NCBI GenBank assembly: GCA_963668695.2
Contig: CAXXLQ010000004.1
Coordinates: 416,001 to 480,000, forward strand
Length of the DNA: 64,000 bases
Direction: 5' to 3'
Source of the DNA: Vicinamibacteria bacterium
GTDB taxonomy: Bacteria > Acidobacteriota > Vicinamibacteria > Marinacidobacterales > Marinacidobacteraceae
The first letter of the stretch is position 1; each line of letters starts with the position of its first letter. The translations under genes and the position numbers were made by a program. The notes under the pieces were generated by a model. It ran no database searches, was not told where the DNA came from, and saw nothing but the letters and a program-made list of their open reading frames with translations. Positions 2,721 through 61,756 of the stretch are shown piece by piece.

Positions 2721-2935
2721 CAGCCTGTGGTGAAACCCAGGCGGCCCAGTTCTCCCGGTGGGGGCTCGCCCGGCGATCCATCCCGGCTGAACCACTCCGC
2801 TTCGCTCCGTTCTGCGTTGCGTTTCGGTCGAAATACACCAGGTATTCCTCCCTCACGCGCCTTGTCAGCCGGGCCCCCACCGGGAGAACTGGGCCTCACC
2901 GGGCTCGGCGCTCACCCGGGTTCCACCACAGGCTG
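2721..2935. mobile_element. MITE copy A (179-bp core plus two 20-mer insertions)
   Basis: TIRs CAGCCTGTGGTGAAACCC / GGGTTCCACCACAGGCTG; flanks CTAG/CTAA; inserted at the holB TAG stop. Confidence 0.85.
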
Positions 2936-3115
2936 CTAAGGCACCGCCGACAACCCGGACGGCGCGCGACAGCGGAGCGCCAGCCTCTGAGCTTGCCCCG
3001 GTTGATCGGACCAGTAGGAATGGCCGAAACGCCGGTGACATGATCCGCAACCCCAAGAAACTGCGGTCGTAATCCCCGCAGACACAAGCGCCTCACCCGC
3101 CAGGAGACCCGCCCC

Positions 3116-3673
3116 ATGATGACCGTCCTCTCCCTCTGGCTGCCGATCCTCATCGCGGCCGTCCTCGTGTTCATCGCCAGTTCGGTGATCCACATGGTGC
3201 TGGGCTTCCACAAGAAGGACATGGGGGCGATTCCCGACGAGCGCCGGGTCGCCGACGCGCTGCGGCCGTTCCAGATCCCGCCCGGCGACTACGCGATGCC
3301 CCACGGCGCGGACGCGAAAGAAATGGCGTCCCCCGAATTCATCCAGAAGACCAAGGAGGGACCGGTGGCGATCCTGACCGTGCTTCCGAACGAACCCATG
3401 AATATGGGCAAAAGCCTCGGGATGTGGTTCGGCTATTCGCTGGTCGTCGGGGGCTTCGCCGCCTACGTGGCGGGGATGACCCTCGGAATCGGGGCGGCGT
3501 ACGGCGACGTGTTCCGGGTGGTCGCCGCGGTCAGCTTCGCCGGGTATTCGCTCGCCATCCTGCAGGCTTCCATCTGGTGGGGACGGAGCTGTGGTTACAC
3601 GCTGCGCACGATGGCGGACGGCTTGGTCTACGCGCTGCTCACCGGGGGCGTCTTCGGCTGGCTCTGGCCGTAG
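3116..3673 (+). CDS. hypothetical membrane protein
   Basis: 185 aa, several hydrophobic segments, AGGAG RBS. Confidence 0.75.
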   Translation: MMTVLSLWLPILIAAVLVFIASSVIHMVLGFHKKDMGAIPDERRVADALRPFQIPPGDYAMPHGADAKEMASPEFIQKTKEGPVAILTVLPNEPMNMGKSLGMWFGYSLVVGGFAAYVAGMTLGIGAAYGDVFRVVAAVSFAGYSLAILQASIWWGRSCGYTLRTMADGLVYALLTGGVFGWLWP

Positions 3674-3751
3674 GTACTCCTGTACCCCACCGCCGGCTTC
3701 CTCGGCTGGCGGTGGCCGTCGCCGACGCTTCGCTCATGATCCGCTGACCGG

Positions 3752-4789
3752 ATGAGGAAGCACGCTTACCGGGTCGTCACGACCCTGCTGACGGCGCTGG
3801 GTCTCGGGGCCCTGTTTTCCCTCCGTTTCGTTGGTCTCTACAGCCACCAGGCGCTCGCGCTCGTGCTGCTGCTCGGCTCCGTCTGGGCGATCGCGAGCCG
3901 AATCTGGTGGGCGCGGAAGGGGCGCCTTCATCCGGGGCTGCTGCGGGGACTTCGTGGATCCGAGAATCGGCCCTACTTCGTCCAGGCGGTGGGGCGGGCG
4001 AGCTTCTGGGCGGCGGCCGCCGTCGCGTGCATCGCGGTTTTCCCCCGGTCGGCGGAGTTGACCACCCTGCTCGCCGGGATGATCGTCGTCGGCCTGCTTC
4101 GGGTCGCGGCATCCTTCCTCGTCCCGCGCCGGACGAACGCCGGGGCCACCCTCGTCATGGCGGCCGGCGCCCTGGTCCTGGCATTCGATCTTGGTCGCGC
4201 CTTTGTCGGGGGACCGGCCGCCGCACTACAGATCGCTCCCCCGTTCGCGGGGGAGTGGCTCGTGTTGCAGGGTGGTAACAGTCCCCTGCAGAGCCACCAT
4301 CTCGCGGCCTACAACCAGCGGTTCGCCCTCGATCTCGTCCGGTTGGAAGACGGCCGGATTTTCACCGGCGATCCGGGCGATGCGAATGCGACGGTCCATA
4401 GCTGGGAGCAGCCGCTGGTGTCGCCCGCGGACGGTACGGTGGTCGTCGCCCGCGACGAGATGGAAGACGCAGGCGGCGCGAACTTCGTGACCGAGCTCGC
4501 CGACGCGGCGGGGAACGTCATCGTCATCGAACTCGACACCGGTTTCTTCGTCCTCCTTGCGCATCTCCGGCACGGGACGCTCCGGGTCAGCGAAGGCGAC
4601 CGGGTCCGGAAGGGAGATCCGCTGGCGCTCGCCGGAAACTCGGGGAACACGACGATGCCGCACCTTCATCTCCAGGTGCAGACCCACCCTGACCTTTGGG
4701 ACCCCGACAACCGCTCGGTGCCCTTCGGATTCGGGCCCGACGGCCGGGTCCTGGCGCGCAACGATCGCGTCGGCGCGCCAGTCCCCTAG
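3752..4789 (+). CDS. M23 family metallopeptidase with N-terminal transmembrane domain
   Basis: H....QRFALD, LLAHL, GNSGNTTMPHLHLQ. Confidence 0.85.
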   Translation: MRKHAYRVVTTLLTALGLGALFSLRFVGLYSHQALALVLLLGSVWAIASRIWWARKGRLHPGLLRGLRGSENRPYFVQAVGRASFWAAAAVACIAVFPRSAELTTLLAGMIVVGLLRVAASFLVPRRTNAGATLVMAAGALVLAFDLGRAFVGGPAAALQIAPPFAGEWLVLQGGNSPLQSHHLAAYNQRFALDLVRLEDGRIFTGDPGDANATVHSWEQPLVSPADGTVVVARDEMEDAGGANFVTELADAAGNVIVIELDTGFFVLLAHLRHGTLRVSEGDRVRKGDPLALAGNSGNTTMPHLHLQVQTHPDLWDPDNRSVPFGFGPDGRVLARNDRVGAPVP

Positions 4790-6606
4790 CGCGGCGTTAC
4801 CGCCGCGCCCCGTCCCGACGACGATCCCGCCGGAATGATGGGCAGGATGACCTTCGAGGGATGCTCGGCATCGTGATAGATGCTGTTCTCCGCAACCACC
4901 ACCGGCATGTCCTCGTCCATCTCCCTGCCGGTGTTCCCGTTGGGATACCACTTCGGGAACGAGCTGCTCGACACCGTCAACCGGATGCGGTGGCCCGCCT
5001 TGAAGAGGTTCGAGATGGGATACATCTCGATGGCGAACTTGTAGACCTCGCCGGGGGTCATCAGGACCGGCGCCTCGTCGCCTTCCCGATAGCGCGCGCG
5101 CAGGATGTTCTGACGGAGCGTCAGCGAGTAGCCGTCCGGGAACACGTCGGTTAGCGTCACTGTCCAGTCGGTGTCGACCGCGCTGGACGAGGCATAGAGC
5201 TCCACGGTCGGCAGACCGGTGACTTCGGTGTCTTCTTCAAGCACGGGTGTCGTGAAGGTCAGGCTCCGGCGGTCGGCCGGCCGATTGTCTTGTGCCCCGT
5301 TGGGCTGGATGAACAGATCGCCGCCAATCGACGCCACCGGGTCGCGGGGGTCGTAGGTGTAGGTGTCGGCCGCCTCTTCTCCCGGCGGTTCGAGCGAGAG
5401 GGTGCCGTCGTTGAGCGAGTCGACCAAACCGGTCTTTTCGGCCCGGAAGAAGTAGTCCGTTCGCACCTCGCGGGCCAGCGGGTACTCGTGCTCGGCGCGC
5501 CAGGTGTTGGCGCCCATGATGAAGAGGCTCACCGCCGGCTCGTCCATGATGCCGTTGTCGATCCCCTTCAGGTGATAGTCGAACCACCTCAGGCGCAACC
5601 CGTTGTAGTCGATGGCCGCTTCGGGGCCGAAGTCGAGATCGCCGATCACCCGGGCGGTGATGAGACCGGCTCCGTGGAGCCAGGGCCCGGCGAACAGCTT
5701 CTGGCTGTCGCGGGCGCGCGGCCCGCCCTGGGCCTTGATGCCGTTGAAGTGCTTGACCTGCGAGTGCGGATAGCGGTCGTACCAGCTTGCGTAGTGGAGG
5801 ATCGGGACATCGATCTTGTCCCACTGCTCGTCGACCGCGTACTGCCGCCAGTAGTCGTTGTAGTACGGGTTGTCGATCATGTCCGTCATCATCGTCGTGA
5901 TCATGCTGTTGGCCATCGGCGAGCGGGTCTCGAGACGCCGCTCGTGCCACCTCCGCCAGGCGTCGTCACCGCCGACGTAGCCTGTCCGCCGTCCGGGTTC
6001 GTCGAGCGGCACCGGCTGGACCATCTCGTTCTGCGATAGCAGCCAGGTGGGCATGATCATGTGGAGCGCGCCGCCCGCCCAGTAGAGGTCCTTGTAGGCG
6101 TTCGACGCCGAGTGCGCGCAGAACATCGCGGACAGGTGCGGCGGCCGGGTCGGCGCCGTCAGGTACTGGTTGAAGCAGGTGAACGAGAGCCCCATGGTCC
6201 CGACCTTCCCGGTGGACCAGGGCTGGGTGCCCGCCCACTCGATCGTGTCGTAGCCGTCCTGGCGCTCGTGCCACGCCTCGTCGAGCAGCCAGTAGTAGAC
6301 GCCCTCCGAGTTGTAGCGGCCGCGCTCGTCCTGGACGATCGCCACGTAGCCGCGCTCGGCGAAGTAGGGCGCGAACCGGTGCTCGCAGCCGCCCTTGTTG
6401 TACGGCGTGCGCTCGAGGATGACGGGGAACGGGCCGTCGCCCTGATTGACCGGCATGTAGACGTCCGCGGCCAGCTTGGTGCCGTCCCGCATCGGGACCA
6501 TCACCTCTTCGCAGTTGTAGGGCTGGGCCACGGCGCTGCCGGCAGCAAGCAGGGCGAGCATGAATACGCCCAGCGCGATCGCGATCGGGCGGCTATTTGA
6601 AAGCAT
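4786..6606 (-). CDS. CocE/NonD family hydrolase, secreted
   Basis: Signal peptide, VPMRDGTKLAADVY, ERTPY, QDERGRYNSEG, GTMGLSF, GPWLH, C-terminal SSSFPKW. Confidence 0.9.
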   Translation of the reverse strand: MLSNSRPIAIALGVFMLALLAAGSAVAQPYNCEEVMVPMRDGTKLAADVYMPVNQGDGPFPVILERTPYNKGGCEHRFAPYFAERGYVAIVQDERGRYNSEGVYYWLLDEAWHERQDGYDTIEWAGTQPWSTGKVGTMGLSFTCFNQYLTAPTRPPHLSAMFCAHSASNAYKDLYWAGGALHMIMPTWLLSQNEMVQPVPLDEPGRRTGYVGGDDAWRRWHERRLETRSPMANSMITTMMTDMIDNPYYNDYWRQYAVDEQWDKIDVPILHYASWYDRYPHSQVKHFNGIKAQGGPRARDSQKLFAGPWLHGAGLITARVIGDLDFGPEAAIDYNGLRLRWFDYHLKGIDNGIMDEPAVSLFIMGANTWRAEHEYPLAREVRTDYFFRAEKTGLVDSLNDGTLSLEPPGEEAADTYTYDPRDPVASIGGDLFIQPNGAQDNRPADRRSLTFTTPVLEEDTEVTGLPTVELYASSSAVDTDWTVTLTDVFPDGYSLTLRQNILRARYREGDEAPVLMTPGEVYKFAIEMYPISNLFKAGHRIRLTVSSSSFPKWYPNGNTGREMDEDMPVVVAENSIYHDAEHPSKVILPIIPAGSSSGRGAAVTPR

Positions 6607-6767
6607 GGGTCTCCTCCACTCAGTCGAGTCGGTTACTGATTTCGCAGCCTACGGGCAGCCTTCGAGCCTGTCAATCGGGGATGGCGCGGAACCGCCGATT
6701 TCGATCGCAGGTAGCGCCACCGCGAAGGGAACACCGATCTTCAGACAAGCATGGTGGCGCGGAGGCT

Positions 6768-6875
6768 GGGAACGCCGGTCTTCAGACCGGCATCGCCCGC
6801 GCAGCGGGCGAAACTCCCTCCGCCACTCACCCTCACGGGACGCAGGCACGCGAACGCCGACCTCCAGTCGGCACC
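6768..6875. repeat. REP-like GC hairpin cluster
   Basis: GGGAACGCCGGTCTTCAGACCGGCA, a second hairpin ending GAAACTCCC, and GAACGCCGACCTCCAGTCGGCA; homologous units recur intergenically. Confidence 0.7.
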
Positions 6876-6915
6876 GCCAGCCGGAGGCTGGCGGAACGCA
6901 TATCGCTCTTCATCC

Positions 6916-8035
6916 GACGCATGCTCAGGCCGACCGATCCCGGGATTGACGCATGCTCGGGTCAACCGGCTCCGGGATAGACGCATGCTCAGGCCGACCG
7001 ATCCCGGTATTGACGCATGCCCGGGTCAACCGGCTCCGGGATAGACGCATGCTCAGGCCGACCGATCCCGGAATTGACGCATGCTCGGGTCAACCGGATA
7101 GACGCCGGGATATCCCGAGCCGGCCGACCCGGGACGCATGCTCAGGCCGACCGATCCCGGAATTGACGCATGCTTGAGCCGGCCGACCCCGGAATAGACG
7201 CATGCCCGGGTCAACCGGCTCCGGGATAGACGCATGCTCAGGCCGACCGATCCCGGGATAGACGCATGCTTGGGCCAGCCGACCCCGGAATAGACGCATG
7301 CCCGGGTCAACCGGCTCCGGGATAGACGCATGCTCAGGCCGACCGATCCCGGGATAGACGCATAGAGCCGACCCCGGAATAGACGCATGCCCGGGTCAAC
7401 CGGCTCCGGGATAGACGCATGCTCAGGCCGACCGATCCCGGAAGACGCATGCTTGGGCCGCCGACCCCGAAATAGACGCATGCCCGGGTCAACCGGCTCC
7501 GGGATAGACGCATGCTAGGCCGACCGATCCCGCATAGACGCATGCTTGGTCAACCGACCGATAGACGCATGCCCGGACCGATCCCGGACGCATGCTTGGG
7601 CCGGCCGACCCCCACCGGCTCCGGAATAGACGCATGCCAGCCGGATCGCCGACGATCCGGAATAGACGCATGCCCGGGTCAACCGGCTCCGGAATAGACG
7701 CATGCCCGAAATAGACGCATGCCCGGATCGACCGACCCCGAAATAGACGCATGCCCGGGTCAACCGGCTCCGGAAATAGACGCATGCCTCGGGCTCGACC
7801 GACCCCGAAATAGACGCATGCCCGGGATCAACCGCTCCGAAATAGACGCATGCCCGGGTCAACCGACCCCGAAATAGACGCATGCCCGGCCGGCCGACCC
7901 CGGAATAGACGCATGCCCGGGTCAACCGGCTCCGAAATAGACGCACCAACCCCCGGAATGGAGCGCATCCGCCGGCCCCGCTCCGAAATAGACGCATGCA
8001 GCCGAGTTGCCCGGTCAACCGGCTCCGAAATAGAC
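6916..8035. repeat. 32-bp minisatellite, about 35 units, core (ATA)GACGCATGC, with higher-order variants
   Basis: Cores at 6916, 6948, 6980, 7012, 7044, 7076 and onward; three related inter-core variants; degenerate after about 7520. Confidence 0.92.
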
Positions 8036-9409
8036 AGCGTGGAGTTCCGCGGCCAGCGTGGAGTTCACGCCCAGACCCCGAAGCGTGGAGACGCAGCGTG
8101 GAGTTCCCGCCAACAGACCCCGGCACAGCGTGGAGTTCCGCGGCTCACAGCGTGGAGTTCACGCCAACAGATCCCGCTCCAGAAATGGAGTTCCGCATGC
8201 CAGCGTGGAGTTCCGCGACCCCGACAGCGTGGAGTTCACGCCAACAGATCCCGCTACAGCGTGGAGTTCCGCGGCTTCAGCGTGGAGTTCACGCCGGCAG
8301 ACCCCGCTACAGCGTGGAGTTCCGCGGCTTCAGCGTGGAGTTCCCGCCAACAGATCCCGCTACAGCGTGGAGTTCCGCGGCTTCAGCGTGGAGTTCACGC
8401 CAACAGATCCCGCTACAGCGTGGAGTTCCGCGGCTTCAGCGTGGAGTTCCCGCCAACAGATCCCGCTACAGCGTGGAGTTCCGCGGCTTCAGCGTGGAGT
8501 TCCCGCCAACAGACCCCGCTACAGCGTGGAGTTCCGCGGCTTCAGCGTGGAGTTCCCGCCAACAGATCCCGCTACAGCGTGGAGTTCCGCGGCTTCAGCG
8601 TGGAGTTCCCGCCAACAGATCCCGCTACAGCGTGGAGTTCCGCGGCTTCAGCGTGGAGTTCCCGCCAACAGATCCCGCTACAGCGTGGAGTTCCGCGGCT
8701 TCAGCGTGGAGTTCACGCCAGCAGACCCCGCCAGAGCGTGGAGTCCGCATCCGCCTGTCAAGCGACAGATAAAACTGGGCCACCGGCGACAGATAAAACT
8801 GGGCCACCCCGAAGGGTCCGGGACGTTCATCGCGTTGTCTCTGGCTGGTTCCCCGTTGTGCGCTCGGCGGAGGAGGAGAGGACGCTGAGGAGCCCGGAAG
8901 CGTCCGCCGCCACGACTTCCAGAACCGCCGGAGCCGAGCCCTCCGATCCGGCCGGCCGGCGAGGGCGTCGACCGGCACTTCCGCACGTCGCGTCCGACGA
9001 ACATTCTGAACCTCGGGCAGAATCCCGCCAGTCGGAAACAACGAGCCAGCAGCCAGCAGCCGCGGCCCCCGAGGATGACCAGGACGCCCGCTTCGAGGGC
9101 CTTCCCAAGGTGTTCATCCGCAATGCCGCCGCGGTCGGGCCTCGGCCGCACCCGGAAGCCCTGCGCGCGCTGATCCTCGACATCTGCCGCCACCGCGACT
9201 GGACCACCCCGGCCGAACTCGCTCGCTGGTTTGACATGCACCGGCGGAGCCTCGCGAACCGCTACATCCGGCCGCTCCTGGAGGCCGGGATGCTGGAGCG
9301 GCAGTTTCCGGACAGCCCGAACACCCCGAAACAGGCGTACCGGACGCGGCGCGAAGACCCAGCGCTGTCCGAGGCCGGCACGGGCAGGCTCTCGATTCCG
9401 GAGGATTGA
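7850..9409 (+). CDS. repeat-spanning ORF ending in a winged-HTH domain (Fic/RecG-C-terminal type); true start uncertain, possibly a gene remnant
   Basis: C-terminal LILDICRHRDWTTPAELARWFDMHRRSLANRYIRPLLEAGMLERQFPDSPNTPKQAYRT; the N-terminal part is translated repeat. Confidence 0.5.
   Translation: MPGSTDPEIDACPAGRPRNRRMPGSTGSEIDAPTPGMERIRRPRSEIDACSRVARSTGSEIDSVEFRGQRGVHAQTPKRGDAAWSSRQQTPAQRGVPRLTAWSSRQQIPLQKWSSACQRGVPRPRQRGVHANRSRYSVEFRGFSVEFTPADPATAWSSAASAWSSRQQIPLQRGVPRLQRGVHANRSRYSVEFRGFSVEFPPTDPATAWSSAASAWSSRQQTPLQRGVPRLQRGVPANRSRYSVEFRGFSVEFPPTDPATAWSSAASAWSSRQQIPLQRGVPRLQRGVHASRPRQSVESASACQATDKTGPPATDKTGPPRRVRDVHRVVSGWFPVVRSAEEERTLRSPEASAATTSRTAGAEPSDPAGRRGRRPALPHVASDEHSEPRAESRQSETTSQQPAAAAPEDDQDARFEGLPKVFIRNAAAVGPRPHPEALRALILDICRHRDWTTPAELARWFDMHRRSLANRYIRPLLEAGMLERQFPDSPNTPKQAYRTRREDPALSEAGTGRLSIPED
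8035..8745. repeat. 53-bp (21+32) tandem repeat, core CAGCGTGGAGTTC
   Basis: Regular from 8225 to 8733, cores at 8225, 8257, 8278 ... 8702; alternating linkers CGCGGCTT and MCGCCAACAGAYCCCGCTA. Confidence 0.95.
8756..8809 (+). mobile_element. orphan IS21-family-like terminal sequence
   Basis: Starts TGTCAAG, then two direct copies (24-bp period) of GCGACAGATAAAACTGGGCCACC; no istA/istB follows. Confidence 0.6.
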
Positions 9410-9852: not shown

Positions 9853-10008
9853 ATTCCGGGGCCGATGATGAGCGGCCGGATCGCCCCGAACACCCCGAAA
9901 CAGGCATACCGCACCCGTCGGGAGGACCCATCGGACTCGGGTCCCGGCGCTGGTTAGCGAACCGGGCTCGCTCCGCGCCGCGGTTGCTGCCGGAGCGGCG
10001 AATCATTA

Positions 10009-10046
10009 TTGTTGAATATCCATCTACTCCAATGGATATTCAACAA
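10009..10046. promoter_or_regulatory. perfect 14-bp inverted repeat, putative operator overlapping a start codon
   Basis: TTGTTGAATATCCA-N10-TGGATATTCAACAA; ATG at 10032. Confidence 0.6.
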
Positions 10047-11213: not shown

Positions 11214-12136
11214 ACCGAGAGGAATTCCTCACGGCGCTGGACAGCCTCAACGTGTGGAAGCGCGGGGGCGTGCGAGCACCGCACAAACCGCTCCTGCTCC
11301 TCCTGGCGCTCGGCCGGCTCTCGCAGGATGAGAAGCGGCTCGTTCGCTACGAAGACGTGGAAGCCCGGCTACGGCAACTGCTTGAACGGTTCGGACCTCC
11401 GCGCCAGGTCACCCACCCTGAGTTCCCCTTCTGGCACCTGCAGACGGACGGAATCTGGGAGATCCCGGATAGGGACAGCCTCCCGAAGAAGAAGGGAGGT
11501 AGGTCCGTTTCTGCCGCCACGCTGCGCAGGCTGGGAGTCCAGGGCGGACTTCCGACCGGATTGGATCAACTCCTGCGGACGGACCCGGAACTCATCGAGA
11601 CAGCAGCGGTCACGCTGCTGAACGGTCACTTCCCCGAGTCCTTCCACACGCCTATCCGGGATGCCGTCGGGCTCGCGGATCCGATGGCGCTCGAGACCCC
11701 AACCGAGTACGGAACCACGCGGCGCCGCAGGCGCGACCCGAACTTCCGGCGGGCCGTAATGACCGCCTACGAACGCCGCTGCGCGGTCTGCGACTTCGAT
11801 GTCCGGCTCGACGACGACCTGCTGGGACTCGACGCCGCTCACATCAAGTGGCACGCCGCCGGCGGGCCGGACATGGTTCCCAACGGGCTTGCCCTCTGCA
11901 AGCTCCACCACCACGCGCTCGATCGGGGCGCGATTGGCCTCGCTGCAGTCAGCGGCCGCGAGCTAAGACTCTTGATCTCCCAGGAACTCAGCGGAACGAG
12001 CGAAGCCTTCCGCCAGTTGGTGGACGCTCGAGGCCGACCGGTGCGGAAGCCGCAGGAGCACGCGCAACTCCCGGATCCCGCGTTCGTGGACTGGCATCGC
12101 CGGGAGGTCTTCCGGGGAGAACCCCGGACTTCCTGA
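11210..12136 (+). CDS. HNH endonuclease with N-terminal SBD-like domain (putative modification-dependent restriction endonuclease)
   Basis: RAPHKPLLLL, PEFPFWHL, RDPNFRRAV..AY..RCAVC, AAHIKW, NGLALCKLHHHALDRG; ATGA overlap with the ATPase gene. Confidence 0.85.
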   Translation: MNREEFLTALDSLNVWKRGGVRAPHKPLLLLLALGRLSQDEKRLVRYEDVEARLRQLLERFGPPRQVTHPEFPFWHLQTDGIWEIPDRDSLPKKKGGRSVSAATLRRLGVQGGLPTGLDQLLRTDPELIETAAVTLLNGHFPESFHTPIRDAVGLADPMALETPTEYGTTRRRRRDPNFRRAVMTAYERRCAVCDFDVRLDDDLLGLDAAHIKWHAAGGPDMVPNGLALCKLHHHALDRGAIGLAAVSGRELRLLISQELSGTSEAFRQLVDARGRPVRKPQEHAQLPDPAFVDWHRREVFRGEPRTS

Positions 12137-14837: not shown

Positions 14838-15165
14838 CTACCCCAGCGCCTCGCGGGCGATTCTACGGGGGACACGCCATGCGGGCACGGGGCGTCAGAA
14901 CTGTCTCGCTCCCTTGCGGGGAGCAGTGCCGGCCCCCACCGGGAGAACTGGCCGGAGGTCGGCGTTCCAAGCCGTCTGCGCGCTTCTTGTTCGTCGGCGA
15001 TACGCGGTTCCGCCCGCTGCGCTGGCGGTGCCGGTCTGAATGAAGACCGGCGGTCCCGGTTCCCCTGATCCGCCGGCGCGTTCACGTTGGGCGCGATCCC
15101 CGCCGGCCCGGCAGGACTTCACCTCGGCGCCGGTGAGCGCGATGCCCGCCTCGAACTGCTCGAGG
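14838..15165 (-). pseudogene. smpB: fragmented second copy of smpB interrupted by REP-like repeats
   Basis: 15098-15165 matches 18422-18489 (65/68); 15060-15097 resembles 18322-18359; 14838-14859 encodes AREALG-stop, like the smpB end VREALG-stop. Confidence 0.8.
14926..15057. repeat. REP-like hairpin cluster carrying a 20-mer insertion
   Basis: GTGCCG[20-mer]CCGGAGGTCGGCGTTCC and TGCCGGTCTGAATGAAGACCGGCGGTCCC. Confidence 0.65.
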
Positions 15166-17911: not shown

Positions 17912-17919
17912 TGACTTAA

Positions 17920-18098
17920 CAGCCTGTGGTGAAACCCAGGCGGCGTTCGAGCGGCGATGCATCCCGCCTGAACCGCGCCGCTTTGCGGCGCTCTGCGTTG
18001 CGTTTCGGTCGAAATACACTCGGTATTCCTCCCTCACGCGCCTTGTCAGCCGGGCGCCTCCCCGCTCTCGGCGCTCACCCGGGTTCCACCACAGGCTG
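17920..18098. mobile_element. MITE copy B (uninterrupted, 179 bp)
   Basis: TIRs as in copy A; perfect TTAA target duplication; inserted at the smpB TAA stop. Confidence 0.9.
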
Positions 18099-18611
18099 TT
18101 AACCCAGCGCCTCGCGGACCTCGCGGGCGGCTTCGCGCTGCTTGATGGTTTCGCGGCGGTCCCGGGTGCTCTTGCCCTTGGCGAGAGCGACCTGGACCTT
18201 GATCCAGCCGTTCCGGAGGTGGATGCGGAGCGGCACCAGGGTGAGCCCGGCCATCGTGAGCTTCCCGGCGATCCGCTGCATCTCGTCCTCGTGGAGCAGC
18301 AGCTTCCGGTTCCGTTCCGGATTCCCCTGCTCCGGGGGGGCGTGCACGTAGGGCGCGATGTGGCAGTTCACGAGGAAGAGTTCGCCGTTTCGCTCGCGGC
18401 CGTAGGCGTCCTTCAGGTTCGCCCCGCCGGACCGGCAGGACTTCACCTCGGCCCCGGTGAGCGCGACGCCCGCCTCGAACTGCTCGAGGATGACGAAGTT
18501 CCGCCGCGCTCTCCGGTTCTCCGCAAGCACCTGCTCGTTGCGAAAGCCTCCCGAACCGGCTCGAGCAGCGCGAAGCCGGCGTTTCTTCCTGGCGGTCTTC
18601 TTTCGGCTCAT
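18099..18611 (-). CDS. smpB: SsrA-binding protein
   Basis: NRRAR, FEAGVALTGAEVKS, RKLLLH, LTLVPL, ALAKGK. Confidence 0.95.
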   Translation of the reverse strand: MSRKKTARKKRRLRAARAGSGGFRNEQVLAENRRARRNFVILEQFEAGVALTGAEVKSCRSGGANLKDAYGRERNGELFLVNCHIAPYVHAPPEQGNPERNRKLLLHEDEMQRIAGKLTMAGLTLVPLRIHLRNGWIKVQVALAKGKSTRDRRETIKQREAAREVREALG

Positions 18612-28002: not shown

Positions 28003-28126
28003 GGAGCGCTGGCCAGTTCTCCCGGTGGGGGCCTTCAGACCGGCATCGCGGCCGGAGGCCGCGAAACTCCCATCGTCGCTCCCCGCGTGGCACCGCGGTG
28101 AATAGGAGCGCCGATCTTCAGGCTCC
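28003..28126. repeat. REP-like cluster carrying a 20-mer insertion
   Basis: GGAGCGCTGG[20-mer]CTTCAGACCGGCA ... GAAACTCCC ... GGAGCGCCGATCTTCAGGCTCCC. Confidence 0.65.
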
Positions 28127-29172: not shown

Positions 29173-29489
29173 CAGCCTATCGACAAAGTCACGCGGCATT
29201 CCCGAGCCAGAAGGGATGGTGGTCGGGTGACCCCGCCCCCCGCCCCTTCCGCTCCGGGGTCTCCGCGGTGCTGACGCCCCGCTCCGGGGTCTCCGCGGTG
29301 CTGGCGCCCCGCTCCGGAAGCGACCGGCGATGCATCCCGGCTGAACCGCCCCCCCACCGGGAGAACTGGCGCTTCGCGTCGCTCATCGTTGCGCTTCGGT
29401 CGAAATACACCAGGTATTCCTCCCTCGCGCGCCTTGTCAGCCGGGCGCCTCACCGGTCTCGGTACTCACGTCACTTTGTCCACAGGCTG
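29173..29489. mobile_element. MITE copy C (core plus 20-mer plus about 120 bp extra containing 30-bp tandem repeats)
   Basis: TIRs CAGCCTATCGACAAAGT / ACTTTGTCCACAGGCTG; core homologous to copy B. Confidence 0.8.
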
Positions 29490-29857
29490 TTTAGCTTCTC
29501 GTCCGCCTTCTGTTTGTGTTCCGGCCTGATGTGAAGCGCCACGGTGGCCAGCGCGAACGCCAGTACACCCAGATCATCCGAAAATCCGGCTAACGGAACG
29601 ACATCGGGAATGGCATCCAACGGGAAGATGAAGTAGCCAAGCGCGCCGATGATGCGCGCGCGGGCCCATTTTGGAGTGTTCGGGTCACGCAGGCAGCGGT
29701 ACAGGACAAGCGCCCCACGAATCACCTCCCTGCCTGCCGCCGGGGCGAACGCGACGACCTTATTCCGGAACGACTCCTTGCTGTACGCCTCGTCGTAGTT
29801 GGGTTCGGGCGACGGATTCGCCGCGTCGTCCCGGGCGGAGTCAATCACCGGCGTCAA
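29471..29857 (-). CDS. YkvA / DUF1232 family membrane protein
   Basis: TPKWAR..IIGALGYFIFPLDAIPDVVPLAGFSDD; the last codons and the stop lie in the MITE TIR. Confidence 0.85.
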   Translation of the reverse strand: MTPVIDSARDDAANPSPEPNYDEAYSKESFRNKVVAFAPAAGREVIRGALVLYRCLRDPNTPKWARARIIGALGYFIFPLDAIPDVVPLAGFSDDLGVLAFALATVALHIRPEHKQKADEKLNSLWTK

Positions 29858-36394: not shown

Positions 36395-36535
36395 TGCCGA
36401 CTTGGATGGCGGCCCCAGTTCTCCCGCTGGGGACCCTTGCCGGTGGTGCCATCCAGCCCGACAGCGGGCCGCTGTGCCGGCCCCCACCCGGAGAACTGGC
36501 CAGAGGTCGGCCCAGTCCTCCCGGTGGGGGCTCCC
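36395..36535. repeat. REP-like cluster with three 20-mer insertions
   Basis: 20-mer variants at 36415, 36480 and 36512 within the TGCCG..GAGGTCGGC..TCCC backbone. Confidence 0.65.
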
Positions 36536-38849: not shown

Positions 38850-39407
38850 ATGCCCCAGCCTGCACCGCAACCACCCGGTCCCGAACCGAAACCGTCCCAG
38901 CCGCCGGTGGACTCGCCGCCCAAGCCGGCGCCAAGGAACGCCCTTTTTCACACGCTGCTGGAAGCCGGCTTCGATCCGCCGATTGCCGAGCAGCCTGTGG
39001 ACAAAGTGACGTGAGCGCCGAGGCCGGCGAGGCGCCCGGCTGACAAGGCGCGCGAGGGAGGAATACCGAGTGTATTCCGACTGAAGCGCAACGATGAGCG
39101 ACGCGCAGCGGCGCGGTTCAGCCGGGATGGATCGCCGGCCGAACGCCGCGTGACTCTGTTCACAGGTTGCTAGACTGCGGAAACGCAGATGAACGCCATG
39201 ACTTCGGAGACCGTCGCCGCACATGTGCAGCCGCTCGTCACGGAGTTGCGGCAGTTGCGCGAAAACATGGTCACGAAAGCGGACTTGGCCGGGTTCGCGA
39301 CCAAAGCGGATCTAGCTGGCCTGGAAACGCGGATGACCAAGTGGATGTTCGGGGCGCTGACGGCTCAGGCGGCGCTCATCATCGCCATCATCAAGCTGTT
39401 GCCCTGA
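38850..39407 (+). pseudogene. DUF1640-like protein interrupted by a MITE
   Basis: GGAGGAG RBS; removing 38991-39173 restores LLEAGFDPPIAE-TAETQMNAM...TKADLAGFATKADL...IIKLLP in frame. Confidence 0.75.
38991..39169. mobile_element. MITE copy D (uninterrupted, 179 bp, reverse orientation)
   Basis: TIRs CAGCCTGTGGACAAAGT / ACTCTGTTCACAGGTTG; flanks CGAG/CTAG. Confidence 0.88.
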
Positions 39408-39476: not shown

Positions 39477-39623
39477 TGCCGGCCGGAGGCCGGCCCAGTT
39501 CTCCCGGTGGGGGCTCCAAGCCGTCCCCGCGCTTCTGCGCGGTTGGCGATGCGCGATCTCGCTGCGCTTTGCGCAGCGGTGCTGGCCAGTTCTCCCGGTG
39601 GGGGCGTGAACACCGGCGTTCCC
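39477..39623. repeat. REP-like cluster with two 20-mer insertions
   Basis: Homologous to 14926-15057; 20-mers at 39495 and 39586. Confidence 0.65.
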
Positions 39624-45204: not shown

Positions 45205-45306
45205 CTGCTCCCCGCAGAACTACTGAACGGCGGAACCGACCCGGGTCTACGCGACCCTCGCTCCGCCCTCGACCCGCACATATGGCGGGGCGACCTGGTT
45301 ACCGCT

Positions 45307-47022: not shown

Positions 47023-47349
47023 GGAGCGCGTCCGGGCGAGTTGGGATTATCGCCTCTGCTCCGGTTCCGCGGCGCGCCTATGCGGCGCCGGCCCCCCGGT
47101 AGCGCTTCCGGATTTCGGTGAGCCGGACAGAGCCCGAAGCGTCACCCGAAAGCCAATCAGGACAAGAGCCACGTCGCCGCCGCGGACCACTGAGTCGATG
47201 TGATTCGAGGTGTGAGGAAGCGAGGTCCACCAGTTGAACCAACTTCGCCAAGAGCCACTTCGATGTGCCCGCCAACACGTCGTCACGGGACCCGCTACGA
47301 GCCCGAAGCACCACATTTTCCGGTGCTGTCGCGCCTCCAGCTGGCATAA

Positions 47350-47547
47350 CAGCCTGTGGCAAAACCCACGCGGCGTTCGACCGGCGATGCATCCCGGCTG
47401 AACCGCGCCGCTTCGCGGCGCTCTGCGTTGCGTTTCGGTCGAAATACACCGGGTATTCCTCCCTCACGCGCCTTGTCAGCCGGGCGCCTCGCCCCCACCG
47501 GGAGAACTGGCCAGCCTCGGCGCTCACGTGGGTTTCACCACAGGCTG
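47350..47547. mobile_element. MITE copy E (core plus one 20-mer)
   Basis: TIRs; flanks ATAA/TTAA; 198 bp. Confidence 0.88.
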
Positions 47548-47551
47548 TTAA

Positions 47552-47772
47552 CAGCCTGTGGTGAAACCCGGAAGGCATCCATTCGCGGCGCGCAGCGCCG
47601 CGGGGGTGGGGTGTGGGGAGGGGTTTCCCCTCCCCACGAAAGACGATGGTGCGAATCGCGCAGCGATTCGCACCATCAACCCGTGGGGAAAGCGCCCCGC
47701 ACGCACACAAACCGACGGATTCGCCGCGCGCGACCTCCTGGGGCTCGTGCGGGGTGCTTTCACCACGGGCTG
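47552..47772. mobile_element. MITE variant F (same TIRs, unrelated hairpin-rich interior), tandem to copy E
   Basis: CAGCCTGTGGTGAAA / TTTCACCACGGGCTG; TTAA on both sides. Confidence 0.8.
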
Positions 47773-56494: not shown

Positions 56495-56835
56495 ACCTTG
56501 ATCGTGGCTCGGTTGTCCTGGTGGACCTTGATCCCACGCTGGGACATGAACAGCGCGGAGTCCGGCGCTGTGTCCTGGTGAGTGATGCCGAGGTGGTGGC
56601 CGAAGCGCGCTTCCCCCTGGTCGCCGTGGTGCCCGTTTCTCGAAGGGCTGGCGAGGGCGCCCTCTACCCGTTGCTCCGCCCGGGCGCCAGCGGTCTCCTC
56701 CAGGTGTCCTGGGCGTTGACGGACCAGGTGCGATCTGTGGACAAGCGACGCATTCGCCGGCTCTTCGGAAAAGTCTCCCCCGACGAGATTCGGGCCATTG
56801 ACGAGGGTCTGCAACTGTTCCTCGGGCTCTACTAG
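56491..56835 (+). CDS. PemK/MazF family toxin
   Basis: RGSVVLVDLDPTLGHEQRGVRRCVLVS, VVPVS, DQVRSVDKRRI. Confidence 0.9.
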   Translation: MNLDRGSVVLVDLDPTLGHEQRGVRRCVLVSDAEVVAEARFPLVAVVPVSRRAGEGALYPLLRPGASGLLQVSWALTDQVRSVDKRRIRRLFGKVSPDEIRAIDEGLQLFLGLY

Positions 56836-57069
56836 CAGCCTGTGGTGAAACCCGGGTGAGCGCCGAGGCCGGCCAGTTCTCCCGGTGGGGGCGAGGCGCC
56901 CGGCTGACAAGGCGCGTGAGGGAGGAGCCCCCACCGGGAGAACTGGCCCGGGTGTATTTCGACCGAAACGCAACGAAGAGCGGAGCGAAGCGGAGTGGTT
57001 CAGCCGGGATGGATCGCCGGCCGAGCCCCCACCGGGAGAACTGGGCCGCGTGGGTTTCACCACCGGCTG
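56836..57069. mobile_element. MITE copy G (reverse orientation, core plus three 20-mers)
   Basis: 234 bp = 179+19+18+18; inserted at the toxin TAG stop. Confidence 0.88.
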
Positions 57070-57226
57070 CTGAAGCCGACCTCGGCCTCCCCACGGCTTG
57101 GCCGCATACACAGCCGGGCATCGCCCAGCGAAGGCCGCGTAATGTCGTGTCCGCGACCATCTTGGGATCCACCTTTGGATTCTGACTCGCTCTGGAAGAG
57201 AATCCTGGGGACGGCATATTTGCCTC

Positions 57227-59429: not shown

Positions 59430-59803
59430 CCCCCCACGCAGGTTCGGCTCTGACGGGTGACAGCTTTGTACATGCTAGAGTGCCCGGTTGCTGTTTAGCG
59501 TTGCCCGGTCGGCAGTCGCGCGGGCTGGACGCCGGACAGACTCGAACTTGCGCGCGCCTGCTGTCCGTTCCCGCCGGGAATTTCCTGTCCAGAGAGTTGG
59601 CGGGACTTTTTCGTCCGATAGCGCGACAGGCTCAATGCGAACAGGCCCGATGCGAAGGCCGGCGAACCCTCATTCGCCGGCCTCACCCCACCTTGCCCGT
59701 GCGGAGCCGGAACTGACACGACCGGCGCCCTTCCTCTTTCGGCGGTACCCCAAGCCGGTAGCGCACACCGTCTGAGGATCGAGATTCGCCCGGAGGATTA
59801 ACC

Positions 59804-61552
59804 ATGGAACACGCGGAAACCCCCGGGTTCGACCTGGAGCTGCTCCGTGATTTCGGAGTCGAAGCCCAGACCGACGAGGTCAAGGCGCTCGTCGCGCTCG
59901 GAAAAGACCGCGGCTATCTGCTCACCGAAGAGGTTCAGGAAGCCTGGGGCGACGACCCTCCCGAGGAGTTTCTCGAAAGCCTGACCGAATGGGGTATCCC
60001 GATCTTCGAGTCCGAAGTGGAATACGAGAAATCCCGGGACGAAAGCGGCGCCAACCTCGACCTGACCCCGAGCGCCATCGAGCGCACCAACGACCCGGTG
60101 CGGATGTATCTCCGCGAAATGGGCGTGGTTCCGCTGCTCGACCGGGAGGGTGAAGTCCGGATCTCGAAGCGCATCGAGCGCGGGAAGAACCGCTCCAAGC
60201 GGGCGATCACCAGACGGCTCTACATCATCAATCAACTGCTTGAGGGCTTCCAGCCACAGATCGAGGCCGACACCATGCAGCTTCGGGAGAACTTCGAGGT
60301 TGCCGAGGGCGGGACCACGATCCGCCACGACCAGCATCGCGAACGGATCCTCGCGGCGATCTCCAGGCTGGAAGTGTCCTACAAGCTGTATCGAAGGCGC
60401 GTGTCTCTGCTTCGAAAAGCGGCCCGCCGCACCCGTGACTATCGGCGCCGGGCAAACGCCGCCGCACGCACGCGTATCGAGATGAGCCATGTCATCTGGA
60501 CCATGCGTCCGACCGACGGCCTGCTCAGCCGCTGGATGGAGGAACTCAAGGGCCTTTGCGAAGACGCGGGCCGGGCGACGTGTGAACTCGATGTTTGCGC
60601 CGCTCTCCGGAGGGAGATCGACGCTTCCGAAGACGCGACGGCCGAAGACAAGACCGCACTCCGCCGCGACGTGATGCGGCGACAGCGCGAAGCCCAGGGC
60701 AGGCTCGACGGCGCTGGCCACGTCATGCCCGAATTCGGCACCACCAAGAAGATCAAGTCGGCACGGCTGGAAGTGCTGCCGGAGCTCGAAGCCGCCGTCG
60801 CCGACATCGACCTTGGCGAGGAACGCGCCCAACTGGCAAAGCAGGACCTCGTGCAGGCCAACCTGCGGCTCGTCGTTTCCATCGCCAAGAAGTACACGAA
60901 CCGCGGGCTCCAGTTCCTGGATCTCATCCAGGAGGGCAACATCGGCCTCATGAAGGCGGTGGACAAGTTCGAGTACCGCCGCGGCTACAAGTTTTCGACC
61001 TACGCCACCTGGTGGATCCGCCAGGCCATCACCCGCGCGATCGCGGACCAGGCTCGGACGATCCGAATCCCGGTGCACATGCACGAGACCATCAACAAGC
61101 TGCACCGGACCCAGCGGAGCTTGGTACAGGAGCTCGGCCGCGAACCGCGTCAGGAGGAAATCGCGGACCGGATGGGCATGACGCCGTCCAAGGTCCGGAA
61201 GGTCATGAAGATCGCCCAGGAACCGATCTCGCTCGAGACCCCGATCGGCGAGGACGACGACGGCCATCTCGGTGACTTCATCAAGGATCCGAACGCCCCC
61301 TCACCGCAGGAGCTCGTCATCAACAAGCGGCTTCAGGAAACCATCGAAGCCGTGTTGAAGACCCTCACCCCGCGCGAAGAAGCCGTCCTCGAAAGCCGGT
61401 TCGGCCTCGGAGGACTCCAGGAAAAGACTCTCGAAGAGGTCGGAAAACAGTTCGAGGTAACCCGCGAGCGCATTCGGCAGATCGAGACGAAGTCCATCCG
61501 CAAACTGCGTCACCCGGCGCGTGCCCGCAAACTGCGGCAATTCTCCGAATGA
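59804..61552 (+). CDS. rpoD: RNA polymerase primary sigma factor
   Basis: [59 protein letters not shown]. Confidence 0.96.
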
Positions 61553-61559
61553 TCCCGAG

Positions 61560-61756
61560 CAGCCTGTGGACAAAGTCACATGGCGTTCGGCGCGCGATCC
61601 ATCCCGGCGGAACCGCCCCCCCACCGGGAGAACTGGCGCTTCGCACCGCTCGGCGTTGCGCTTCGGTCGAAATACGCCCGGTATTCCTCCCTCGCGCGCC
61701 TTGTCCGCCTGGCGCCTCCCGCGCCTCGGCGCTCACGCGACTTTGTCCACAGACTA
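61560..61756. mobile_element. MITE copy H (core plus one 20-mer)
   Basis: CAGCCTGTGGACAAAGTC / GACTTTGTCCACAGACTA; 197 bp. Confidence 0.85.

Follow-up and report, generated by a model that had tools for sequence, protein, structure and literature searches.

A 20-nucleotide tag that replaces dinucleotides in non-coding repeats of Vicinamibacteria is probably an ultra-small mobile insertion module

A constant 20-nt tag, found repeatedly in non-coding repeat DNA of marine Acidobacteria of the class Vicinamibacteria, is one of the smallest mobile DNA units seen. It enters DNA by a single rule: the 20-mer replaces one dinucleotide, usually one beginning with A or T, and the net gain is 18 nt because the target dinucleotide is lost when the 20-mer enters. 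The tag was recently active in a clade of Vicinamibacteria comprising Candidatus Marinacidobacterium and its relatives. We consider it quite probable that it is an ultra-small, non-autonomous mobile insertion module, recently active in this clade, whose templated copies take the place of a dinucleotide. The movement of units far shorter than the ends bound by transposases has been a standing question since the small dispersed repeats of cyanobacteria. The present case is unusually clean, combining a constant and unstructured sequence, a two-out/twenty-in rule, nesting and tandem arrays with a genome-private variant, sites that differ between close genomes and several complete chromosomes. Together these features make the question testable by comparative genomics, which can ask which gene tracks the tag, and by a plasmid insertion assay.

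Results

Tags in the 64-kb window

The window, i.e., the whole 64-kb stretch of DNA analysed, contained exactly 15 matches to the tag at up to three mismatches. These were the same 15 copies, at the same coordinates, as those reported by an earlier reading made from the letters alone (the sequence-only reading), which had also correctly described both orientations and 0-2 mismatches: eight copies were on the plus strand and seven on the minus strand, with ten exact, four carrying one mismatch and one carrying two. By chance, a mean of 0.01 matches was expected (100 dinucleotide-preserving shuffles), and none of the 100 shuffles reached 15. The tag consists of GC, the first base of which is sometimes C or A, followed by the 18-nt unit CCCCACCGGGAGAACTGG; its 3' end is occasionally extended by one or two extra C or by further 18-nt units, forming tandem arrays. 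It possesses neither inverted repeats nor a hairpin of its own. Folding of the tag alone and with its flanks was no better than that of shuffles (z = 0.45, -0.10, 0.08 and 0.53), in keeping with its earlier description as non-palindromic, and it is asymmetric.

As had been claimed, every tag lay in a MITE or a REP-like cluster. Eight of the 15 were found in copies of one MITE, a genuine IS5-like element of 189 bp with inverted repeats and TTAA/CTAG-like flanks. MITE B (17916..18103, plus strand, 189 nt, with terminal inverted repeats and TTAA flanks) and MITE D (38990..39172, minus strand) carried no tag. MITE A (2718..2939, plus strand, 225 nt when scaled to the model) carried two exact tags, one at 2746..2765 (minus strand; site S1, which when empty reads GA|AC|GC on the tag strand) and one at 2873..2892 (plus strand; site S4, a clean 18-nt gain between GC and GC). 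Site S2 was occupied in two copies by tags with C as first base, both on the plus strand, i.e., at 29350..29369 in MITE E (29321..29491, plus strand), which has one tag and lacks its 5' end, and at 61617..61636 in MITE H (61558..61757, plus strand, one tag, 207 nt). The single tag of MITE F (47347..47552, plus strand, 208 nt) was exact and occupied site S5 with a net gain of 19 nt (47491..47510, plus strand). MITE G (56833..57071, minus strand, 244 nt) carried three exact tags, at 56873..56892 (minus strand, site S5), 56927..56946 (plus strand, site S3, GA|AT|AC) and 57025..57044 (plus strand, site S1).

The remaining seven tags lay in REP-like hairpin clusters. Exact copies were present at 14932..14951 (plus strand, in a hairpin, site type R4), 28013..28032 (minus strand, in a hairpin, site R3, AG|A|CC, net gain 19 nt), 39495..39514 (minus strand, at the base of a hairpin, site R1, GA|AC|GC) and 39586..39605 (minus strand, within a hairpin arm, site R5, AC|A|CC). 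One hairpin bore a tag with one mismatch in its 5' arm (36480..36499, plus strand, site R4, CG|A|CC) and another, also with one mismatch, just 3' of it (36512..36531, minus strand); the R1-type position of the latter was read from the sequence, and no empty partner was found for it. The copy with two mismatches (36415..36434, minus strand) is old and decayed; locus L010 has it too, in the orthologous spacer, and there it is shorter by one further base. Locus L010 also contains an IS inside a REP loop beside a tag.

Of the 15 tags, 13 lay outside all GC3-called ORFs; those at 14932 and 28013 fell only inside the over-extended 5' ends of ORFs, belonging to a DsbA/ScsC-like gene and a DUF3500 gene, respectively. 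Each of these two tags lies upstream of the true start, a later ATG that opens a signal peptide, and the Pfam domains do not start until residues 178 and 79. None of the 15 lies in a probable CDS, as the sequence-only reading had maintained.

MITE length followed tag count, as noted previously on MITE limits 10 nt narrower than ours. Copies with zero, one, two and three tags measured 189, 207-208, 225 and 244 nt in the window, and the 84 near-full-length MITEs of the window and related loci had median lengths of 189, 207, 225, 243 and 261 nt, i.e., steps of 18. Of the 105 inserted blocks in these 84 MITEs, 102 were tag-like. A MAFFT alignment of the seven window MITEs placed the tag at five positions, with gains of 18 nt at four and 19 nt at one and with no target duplication, in agreement with the earlier account.

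Junctions follow a single exchange rule

The sequence-only reading had called for alignments of empty and filled sites. Drawing on the window and at least 94 related loci, this comparison gave approximately 25 independent filled/empty sites, including tags inside tags, in a list that represents our own reading of cluster, flank, structure and ortholog comparisons, and one rule emerged from them. At most sites, 2 nt were exchanged for 20; at four, 1 nt was exchanged for 20 and was always followed by CC; at one, 2 nt were exchanged for 22. No junction showed a target duplication, 1-2 nt being lost instead. The rule is not absolute, given gains of 19 and 20 nt and a first base of G, C or A. Site S3 departs further in the base that follows the tag, and a few junctions continue for one or two C beyond the tag. 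Empty counterparts were found for 33 of 75 flank clusters and for 75 of 175 exact-flank contexts; the other 42 clusters had none within the sampled DNA.

At 19 of the 25 sites the first replaced base was A or T, whose background frequency is 0.33 (P = 1.3e-5). AC was the dinucleotide most often replaced (7/25 sites, P = 2e-4), a count that is raised by reading the 1-nt cases as a tag plus C in place of AC and that becomes 4/21 without them (P = 0.02). Tags nested in tags replaced CA, TA or CC of the host tag. A short motif is insufficient as a target, as GAACGCC occurred in the window 42 times empty (12 of them outside called ORFs) versus four times filled. Junctions were located in loops, stems, hairpin bases and unstructured MITE segments, and the feature common to the targets is an A/T-first dinucleotide in GC-rich DNA. 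The sequence-only reading had proposed that a constant oligonucleotide is written into hairpin-forming repeats. The repeated writing into non-coding repeats held up, given some 25 junctions under one rule, nested tags, a genome-specific variant and two orthologous loci that carry the tag in one genome but not in its counterpart. The hairpin as the deciding feature did not, with junctions lying also in unstructured segments and at hairpin bases.

Tags are well conserved, templated and recent

Non-consensus cells accounted for 12.1% of the MITE backbone versus 3.2% of the inserts across the window and loci, an approximately four-fold better conservation of the tags than of the MITEs that hold them, although the loci were picked for an exact core and insert conservation there is biased upward; the figure from the window alone (backbone 127/1134, inserts 0/128, P = 2.5e-7) is free of this bias. 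A variant with two linked changes was represented by 11 copies at three or more sites, all in one genome, while its single-change intermediates numbered only one and two copies. As variants are inherited across sites, new copies are evidently made from a sequence template. In two of four orthologous comparisons, only one of the two genomes had the site filled, and in one of these pairs the flanks were 100% identical for more than 100 nt on each side. Both of the orthologous copies shared between genomes were decayed. Insertion activity is thus recent.

The high conservation would suit a different explanation, in which the tag is a protein-binding or RNA motif selected by the host and spread by homologous or microhomology-based copying, for which GC-rich flanks could supply the microhomology. 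Such copying predicts ragged ends, however, whereas the ends of the tag are constant to within 0-2 nt in approximately 25 unlike contexts. The decay of old orthologous copies argues against strong constraint and for recent insertion, and the first arrival at each new site would still require an insertion step. We therefore hold a selected motif to be improbable, albeit the best surviving of the alternatives to a mobile module.

Search for a parent element and an enzyme

The tag might instead be the footprint left by excision of a repeat-targeting element, e.g., of the IS110 or IS200/IS605 type. Its asymmetry and the absence of target duplication recall these IS families, and the IS of locus L010 could be taken in the same sense. 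A search of 816 kb, however, yielded no split half-tags with a consistent continuation: the 14 left and seven right half-tag matches were all chance matches in unrelated DNA or decayed or nested tags. The ends of four sampled transposase-bearing elements agreed with the tag at 12 to 13 of 20 positions, the value most common in the background. Neither 18-nt tandem arrays nor a genome-specific two-change variant are expected of a footprint, and IS110 and IS200/IS605-type elements restore the donor site precisely on leaving. On the DNA searched, the excision scar offered by the sequence-only reading is accordingly unsupported, and we regard it as highly improbable.

Pfam searches of 173 ORFs (41 from the window and 132 from the loci) revealed no Y1_Tnp match (RAYT, Y1 HUH); the other 347 locus ORFs were scanned by PADLOC, which does not cover RAYTs. 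No reverse transcriptase was found among the 173 ORFs by Pfam or the 347 by PADLOC, the latter's 'RT' rows comprising only PolA-like proteins (L025, L088) and the protease part of one model (L081). The ORFs scanned make up a small fraction of each genome. No Rfam family overlapped a tag.

Tags move with their host MITE

Across the window and loci, the tag occupied at least 13 positions within the MITE, in both orientations. For several pairs of MITE sites, all four combinations of tag states were present, a pattern that speaks for repeated use of the sites; this four-gamete failure could, however, reflect gene conversion between MITE copies, not repeated insertion. On a backbone tree built on 189 columns and poorly resolved, the states of S3 required 10 changes versus 25.5 in shuffles and those of S1 19 versus 25.4; S2, S4 and S5 were unclustered, which likewise favours repeated use of these sites. 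The clustering of S1 and S3 indicates that tags at these sites spread largely with the MITE and that many tag copies are not independent insertions. The same tag combinations recurred at many loci, which, with the clustered S3 state, shows that tagged MITEs kept spreading and tells against the suggestion that the tag marks or inactivates selfish repeats.

The four combinations, if produced by gene conversion, and the partial clustering of S1 and S3 would also be compatible with the tag being a fixed, ancestral module of the MITE and the REP-like repeat, with empty forms arising by deletion and recombination shuffling the states. Against this stand the 13 or more MITE positions in both orientations, the additional sites in unrelated REP-like hairpins, the tags within tags and the two-change variant at several sites of a single genome. 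The empty form, moreover, is the majority and agrees with the consensus of the repeat, the main sites giving 20 to 58 empty matches, and every deletion would need to take out an identical 18 nt yet leave a site-specific dinucleotide. An ancestral module confined to one position, which would have spoken against the sequence-only reading, was thus not seen, and we regard an ancestral origin as very remote.

Distribution across genomes

The 18-nt core was found in at least 94 related stretches, at least 90 of them from Acidobacteriota and representing at least 16 acidobacterial assemblies. These assemblies belong to different accession series, and include both complete chromosomes and short-contig MAGs. 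The window and loci together held at least 249 tag copies at up to three mismatches, in 75 flank clusters. Among the matches listed, only two of the 249 had a coding context, namely the chance hits in Georgenia and Pseudarthrobacter, and none of the acidobacterial copies did. An artefact of sequencing or assembly, e.g., a leftover adapter or primer, which the sequence-only reading had named as a possible undoing of its case, is excluded by the core's presence in 16 or more separately deposited acidobacterial assemblies. Also against an artefact, whose standing is negligible, are the decay of copies, their subfamily variants and their sharing at orthologous sites, and the contrast between non-coding window copies and the two non-acidobacterial matches, which alone have a coding context. 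A literature search on Marinacidobacterium and on repeats or MITEs of sponge Acidobacteria found no account of the repeats of this lineage.

Discussion

How the tag might be inserted

As the sampled DNA yielded neither an enzyme nor a template gene or master copy, the mechanism by which a mobile module of this kind would spread can only be inferred. The one that we tentatively favour is templated synthesis at a staggered break. An enzyme acting in trans would make a break with a 2-nt stagger, two bases would be lost, and a polymerase or reverse transcriptase would copy a short RNA or DNA template into the gap. Such an enzyme may stop one or two bases into the next round, or repeat the round, and both the +C or +CC ends and the tandem arrays of 18-nt units would arise in this way. 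Once inserted, tags are carried along when the host MITE transposes, and old copies decay. HUH-type transfer of a single-stranded oligonucleotide, which the sequence-only reading had listed beside RNA-templated repair, ranks second and seems unlikely; our remaining belief goes to some other mechanism.

Telomerase adds repeats from a short template and can stop early or repeat its copying, while R2 elements, which use target-primed reverse transcription, make insertions that lack inverted repeats and typically have a small target deletion. The tag resembles both in its product only, their partial or tandem units being like its +C and +CC ends and 18-nt arrays; unlike for these systems, neither a reverse transcriptase nor a template RNA was found in the sampled DNA. 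A more specific proposal, possible but rather doubtful, is a dedicated, telomerase-like 'oligonucleotide writer', opening DNA at a 2-nt stagger and filling the gap from a short, fixed template. Possible candidates are a reverse transcriptase or primase-polymerase that works with a small RNA, and a strand transferase of a new kind. If such a writer exists, nothing but its 18-20-nt product would be mobile, and a transposase would find no ends on it to recognize. The product would then belong to a class of mobile DNA apart from transposons, introns and REPINs, one that might also account for the small dispersed repeats of cyanobacteria. The ability to place a defined 20-mer at loosely specified sites would also be of practical interest.

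Relation to known repeats

The closest likeness is to the small dispersed repeats (SDRs) of Nostocaceae cyanobacteria, of which SDR4-6 were reportedly described by Elhai et al. in 2008. SDRs are approximately 21-27 nt long, and SDR4-6 share a predicted stem-loop. Published passages on SDRs portray them as mobile-like dispersed units in non-coding DNA that insert precisely into other repeats, encode no protein and, in those passages, have no known mechanism (PMC4390886, PMC5861425, PMC3116915). As far as these passages go, the tag is alike in being a dispersed, mobile-like, non-coding unit (about 20 to 27 nt for the two) that enters repeats precisely, and as an SDR would, it forms a dispersed short insert of 20 to 22 nt in otherwise continuous repeats, with empty counterparts at approximately 25 sites. 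It differs in residing in Acidobacteriota, not Nostocaceae, in having no hairpin and, relative to what the passages describe, in replacing a dinucleotide instead of adding cleanly and in having no fixed target word. The tag thus behaves like SDRs but, judged by description, is probably not one of them.

With MITEs, the tag shares its non-autonomous, multi-copy and non-coding nature, the insertion of copies into copies and the existence of subfamilies. It is, however, 5 to 20 times shorter and has neither terminal inverted repeats nor target-site duplications; we rejected it as a MITE given its asymmetry and its junctions, which lose 1 to 2 nt with no duplication. Miniatures of the IS200/IS605 type have subterminal hairpins and insert 3' of a fixed 4-5-nt word with no loss of target, and the tag was rejected as one of these since it has no hairpin, its left flanks vary and its target loses 2 nt. 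It was likewise set aside as a transposon excision footprint, no parent element with matching ends having been found in 816 kb.

The available excerpts on REPs and REPINs depict very short and abundant extragenic units whose movement in trans is attributed to a RAYT, the REPs being imperfect palindromes with a conserved GTAG or CGTC head that move as inverted pairs (PMC3116915, PMC3733652). On the basis of those excerpts, the tag is similarly very short, highly repeated and extragenic, with a single enzyme suspected of acting in trans via single-stranded DNA, but it is non-palindromic and single and replaces 2 nt. As it folds no better than shuffles, it was not retained as a REP/REPIN palindrome. 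A RAYT gene usually has the repeat on its flanks; none was seen among the 173 ORFs scanned by Pfam.

In BOX, BIME and ERIC mosaic repeats, modules keep fixed positions and a fixed order. Such repeats resemble tag-bearing MITEs in the stepwise change of length through presence or absence of a short module, whereas the tag takes at least 13 positions in both orientations, and enters both unrelated repeats and itself.

Tag Copies, Their Hosts, and the Anatomy of the Insert

A search of the window for the constant 20-mer GCCCCCACCGGGAGAACTGG (the tag) returned 15 matches with up to three mismatches, compared with a mean of 0.01 in shuffled sequence. Ten of these were exact, four carried one mismatch and one carried two; the plus strand carried eight and the minus strand seven. 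All 15 coordinates claimed in the sequence-only reading, in both orientations and with zero to two mismatches, were thereby reproduced. The window is ordinary chromosomal DNA, with a composition of approximately 68% G+C and genes such as tmk, holB, dnaG, rpoD and similar. As had been claimed, the tags occupied two repeat families, with eight in copies of one miniature inverted-repeat element (MITE) and seven in REP-like hairpin units. The tag-free MITE measured 189 nt and possessed terminal inverted repeats and TTAA/CTAG-like flanks, features that would fit an IS5-type element. None of the 15 tags was found in a probable CDS, again in agreement with the earlier claim; two overlapped ORFs solely at over-extended 5' ends, the real starts being downstream signal-peptide ATGs.

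Alignment of the seven window MITE copies showed five distinct tag positions and both tag orientations, with a net gain of 18 nt at four positions and 19 nt at one, precisely as the sequence-only reading had described. Its proposal that MITE length follows tag count also held over a larger sample. Amongst 114 nhmmer matches to the MITE, 30 were dropped as not near full length; the 84 retained showed median lengths of 189, 207, 225, 243, and 261 nt for zero to four tags (n = 27, 26, 17, 11, and 3, respectively), i.e., steps of 18 nt. MITEs receive no other kind of insert: of 105 blocks inserted into these copies, 102 are tag-like.

Across the window and the loci, i.e., stretches with the 18-nt core of the tag fetched from other genomes (816 kb altogether), 249 tag copies with up to three mismatches were counted, including 145 exact ones, after those less than 40 nt from a locus end had been dropped. 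The two bases before the core were conserved (C in 93% and G in 80% of 181 exact cores), nothing else outside the core was well conserved, and the flanks beyond these two bases grouped into 75 clusters. The tag had no self-structure (folding z-scores of -0.1 to 0.5). In some MITE copies, two or three 18-nt units stood in tandem at a single site. A variant of the tag in which two changes are linked, C to T at tag position 6 and T to C at position 18, was present in 11 copies, all from one Vicinamibacteria genome (OZ246946), at S1 and S7 of the MITE plus one REP-like site; forms with just one of the two changes numbered one and two copies. As this linked variant occupies several sites, variants pass from one copy to another or come from an altered template, the behavior expected of a copied sequence.

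Junctions and Target Choice

Empty counterparts were found for 33 of the 75 flank clusters, the remaining 42 being left out, and, by exact-seed searches, for 75 of 175 exact-flank contexts. Our own curation of the cluster and exact-flank comparisons yielded approximately 25 independent pairs of filled and empty sites, and at most of these two bases of the empty site had been exchanged for the 20-mer. The claimed replacement of 1–2 bp was thus observed directly, as was the claimed absence of a target duplication. Examples, given for the tag strand in the order left flank, replaced bases, right flank, were GA-AC-GC at S1 and at the REP site R1, GA-AT-AC at S3, GG-GC-GC at S4, GC-TC-CG at S6, CC-TT-GT at S7, and GG-AT-GC at S8. 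One base was lost at four sites, always with CC next; these can equally be read as the replacement of a C-ending dinucleotide (AC at three, GC at S5) by the tag plus one C. One further site had the tag and CC in place of AT. Tags were also nested within tags, in which case the replaced bases of the host tag were CA, TA, or CC.

The first replaced base was A or T at 19 of 25 sites, compared with a background of 0.33 (P = 1.3e-5), and AC was replaced at seven of 25 sites (P = 2e-4), or at four of 21 without the one-base cases (P = 0.02). The word GAACGCC was rejected as a sufficient target, since it is mostly empty in the window (42 empty occurrences, 12 of them outside called ORFs, vs. four filled). 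The sequence-only reading had placed the activity in hairpin-forming DNA. In folds of 19 empty sites, the replaced bases fell in loops, stems, hairpin bases, and open stretches; with no structural position common to them, hairpin position was rejected as a target rule.

At 19911–19992 of the window, flanked by a T2SS-F gene and a pilin-like gene, a 14-nt unit (CCAGTTCTGAAATG) is repeated in tandem in 5.9 copies. This unit and the reverse complement of the tag begin with the same 8 nt, which may be coincidence.

Proposed Mechanism of Insertion

The sequence of the insert is fixed and its ends vary by no more than two bases; the target loses approximately two bases, with no duplication, inverted repeat or hairpin. 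The tag is a real, recently active, ultra-small insertion module with an unusually clear junction rule. We consider it probable that the tag is a mobile insert copied from a template, whereas our confidence in any one particular mechanism stays well short of even.

The occasional run-on of C or CC after the tag corresponds to the start of the next 18-nt unit, and the products form a series of GC, one to three units, and zero to two further bases. This series is what late stops and extra rounds would give, which favors a polymerase that would copy a short template, at times stopping late or going round again. Insertion of R2 retrotransposons likewise involves the loss of two bases from the target. 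On the strength of the product series and this R2-like loss, our tentative preference, held at a little under even chances, is for a break with a 2-nt stagger followed by templated synthesis in the gap. Single-strand transfer is an improbable second choice, with something else after it. The HUH enzymes of IS200/IS605 and RAYT elements recognize hairpins and remove no target bases; as the writer, such an enzyme is possible solely if the hairpin that it reads is in the target. A DDE-type transposase is unlikely, because DDE enzymes leave target duplications.

Age and Spread of the Tag

In the MITE alignment, 12.1% of backbone cells were non-consensus compared with 3.2% of insert cells, although the locus figure is biased in that loci were picked for an exact core. 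In the window, whose choice did not depend on the tag, the difference persisted (127 of 1134 backbone cells vs. 0 of 128 insert cells; P = 2.5e-7). Four orthologous tag comparisons were possible. Two of these tags were common to both genomes and had decayed, and two sites were filled in only one genome of the pair. In the first of the latter, AT in the empty locus L005 is replaced by 22 nt in the filled locus L037, with flanks that are 100% identical over more than 100 nt on either side. In the second, AC in L059 is replaced by the 20-mer in the orthologous MITE of L046; here the next 15 nt past the tag also differ and an empty copy of the L046-type MITE subfamily was found elsewhere, so conversion by another MITE copy may have occurred.

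Given that old copies have decayed and most copies are near-identical, the data point to recent activity, more than selection on the sequence, behind the conservation of the tag. A selected binding site spread by recombination would likewise conflict with the decay of old copies, and it cannot explain why the ends are constant at unlike sites. The tag may still have a function of its own.

Copies multiply by two visible routes. One is hitch-hiking with the MITE: the same combinations of tags were found again at different loci and, on a tree built from the MITE backbone only, the state of S3 required 10 changes vs. 25.5 with shuffled labels, and that of S1 19 vs. 25.4. The other is fresh insertion, as indicated by the number of distinct sites, the nesting of copies, and the orthologues that differ in tag state. 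At S2, S4, and S5, clustering on the tree did not exceed that of shuffled labels (8 vs. 8.7, 11 vs. 11.5, and 12 vs. 13.2 changes, respectively), and all four filled/empty combinations were seen for several pairs of MITE sites. Repeated insertion at one site is therefore likely, though short of proof, as the backbone tree is weak (189 columns) and gene conversion among MITE copies could also account for these results.

The sequence-only reading had itself raised the alternative that the tag is an ancestral part of one repeat at a single position, with empty forms arising by deletion. This is contradicted by the many positions of the tag, by tags nested in tags, and by the identity of the empty forms with the repeat consensus. 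Its suggestion that the tag marks or inactivates selfish repeats is also contradicted, since tagged MITEs kept spreading and the tag thus does not disable them. Orthologous loci with and without entire tagged MITE copies (L007 vs. L087 and L022 vs. L080) indicate that the host MITE, too, was mobile after the species split.

Search for a Parent Element or an Enzyme

The tag might alternatively be the excision footprint of a larger element, as the sequence-only reading had proposed. This was rejected: in 816 kb, 14 left-half and seven right-half matches were obtained, all of which were chance matches, decayed tags, or nested tags, leaving no split half-tags around a longer parent element. Nor did any end of the four sampled transposase-bearing insertion sequences (ISs) resemble the tag, the best match (12 to 13 of 20 positions) being the same as background, and IS ends were discarded as its source. 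A local likeness (AGTTC...CGGT) between an IS end in L010 and the reverse complement of the tag was unremarkable in this comparison and was dropped. No autonomous partner of the MITE was identified among inverted-repeat pairs 400 to 4000 nt apart. The sole pair of MITE terminal repeats in this range (L006 1630–2490, 861 nt apart) encloses a tag in REP-like surroundings and may represent a MITE that other repeats have interrupted.

Enzyme genes were sought with Pfam on 41 window ORFs and 132 of 479 locus ORFs, and with PADLOC on the remaining 347. Pfam detected no reverse transcriptase, Y1 HUH enzyme, or tyrosine or serine recombinase in its 41 window and 132 locus ORFs. Amongst the neighbors that had been suggested for the tag (a transposase, recombinase, RAYT or reverse transcriptase), this set yielded only four DDE transposases, all in locus ORFs (L001, L004, L007, and L010). 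PADLOC, which covers neither transposases nor RAYTs and so answers the reverse transcriptase question only, found no reverse transcriptase in the 347 ORFs; its "RT" rows were PolA-like proteins and a protease domain. At the tag density of the window (approximately one per 4 kb), an enzyme gene is not expected to be linked to the tags in any case.

At approximately 5340–7310 of the L010 locus, an IS that encodes a DDE_Tnp_1 transposase and has low-GC ends occupies the loop of a REP-like hairpin, immediately beside a tag. This IS is missing from the orthologous window spacer (approximately 36480), which shows that REP-like hairpins here are also IS targets.

Occurrence in Other Genomes

A scan of the 18-nt core against 185,579 species genomes matched at least 94 stretches, and copy numbers and host range derived from it are lower bounds. 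Amongst the 94 core-bearing stretches listed, 90 were from Acidobacteriota, from at least 16 assemblies, and were labeled Candidatus Marinacidobacterium (59), Vicinamibacteria (17), or Acidobacteria/Acidobacteriota with no finer class (14). The other four were from Georgenia, Pseudarthrobacter, a Gammaproteobacteria-labeled MAG (L044), and an Acidimicrobiaceae MAG (L070). The Georgenia and Pseudarthrobacter copies are attributable to chance, being single, located within coding sequence, and devoid of the GC prefix. The L044 contig carries an acidobacterial REP-like unit with two tags and is probably mis-binned. The window's own genome was absent from the fetched stretches. Approximately 94% identity over shared genes to one Marinacidobacterium chromosome, the nearest being L010, assigns the window to the Marinacidobacterium clade.

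An adapter or assembly artefact, the former also contemplated in the sequence-only reading, is excluded by this breadth of occurrence across at least 16 acidobacterial assemblies. MITE G, the window copy with three tags, had no match in plasmid or phage collections, and an origin from either was rejected. An Rfam scan at the gathering threshold returned one tRNA only and no family over any tag, so that a known RNA family at the tags was likewise rejected.

Comparison With Known Systems

The tag is without the defining features of a MITE, a REP/REPIN, or an IS200/IS605 derivative. The nearest known case is the small dispersed repeats (SDRs) of Nostocaceae, which are reported to be mobile repeated elements of very small size, SDR5 being inserted exactly within the HIP1 octamer (PMC4390886). 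The tag works like an SDR in being a very small mobile repeat, but it occurs in another phylum (Acidobacteriota) and replaces target bases. Furthermore, SDR4–6 share a predicted stem-loop, whereas the tag has none. The tag belongs with the rare very small mobile repeats, as a distinct form. Nothing was found in the literature on this lineage or its repeats, and the publications listed on the smallest mobile elements dealt, by title and abstract, with integrons, gene transfer, and resistance elements.

Other Features of the Window

Possible defence-type genes were recognized with Pfam at 9984–12136 (a DUF4143/AAA_14 ATPase, then an HNH_2 protein) and at 45307–47022 (an AAA_15/AAA_21 ATPase), with no link to tags in the window. 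A gene-poor stretch contains two tandem arrays, one at 6916–7947 (32-nt unit with a constant GACGCATGC core, approximately 30 copies, higher-order periods of 89–185 nt) and one at 8201–8748 (53-nt unit, 10.3 copies, 95% identity). Neither is a CRISPR, given that unique spacers are lacking. The second array is spanned by an ORF (7850–9409) for which Pfam gave only a weak C-terminal Fic-like match.

A tRNA-Met gene lies at 61780–61854, approximately 20 nt past MITE H, a window copy with one tag. Finally, four tandem paralogues with LVIVD and Big_2 repeats are located at 33983–36166, 36618–39224, 39707–41785, and 42945–45335. They share 73–92% identity over the compared blocks of 100–300 nt, and their spacers contain or adjoin tagged REP-like clusters and one MITE.
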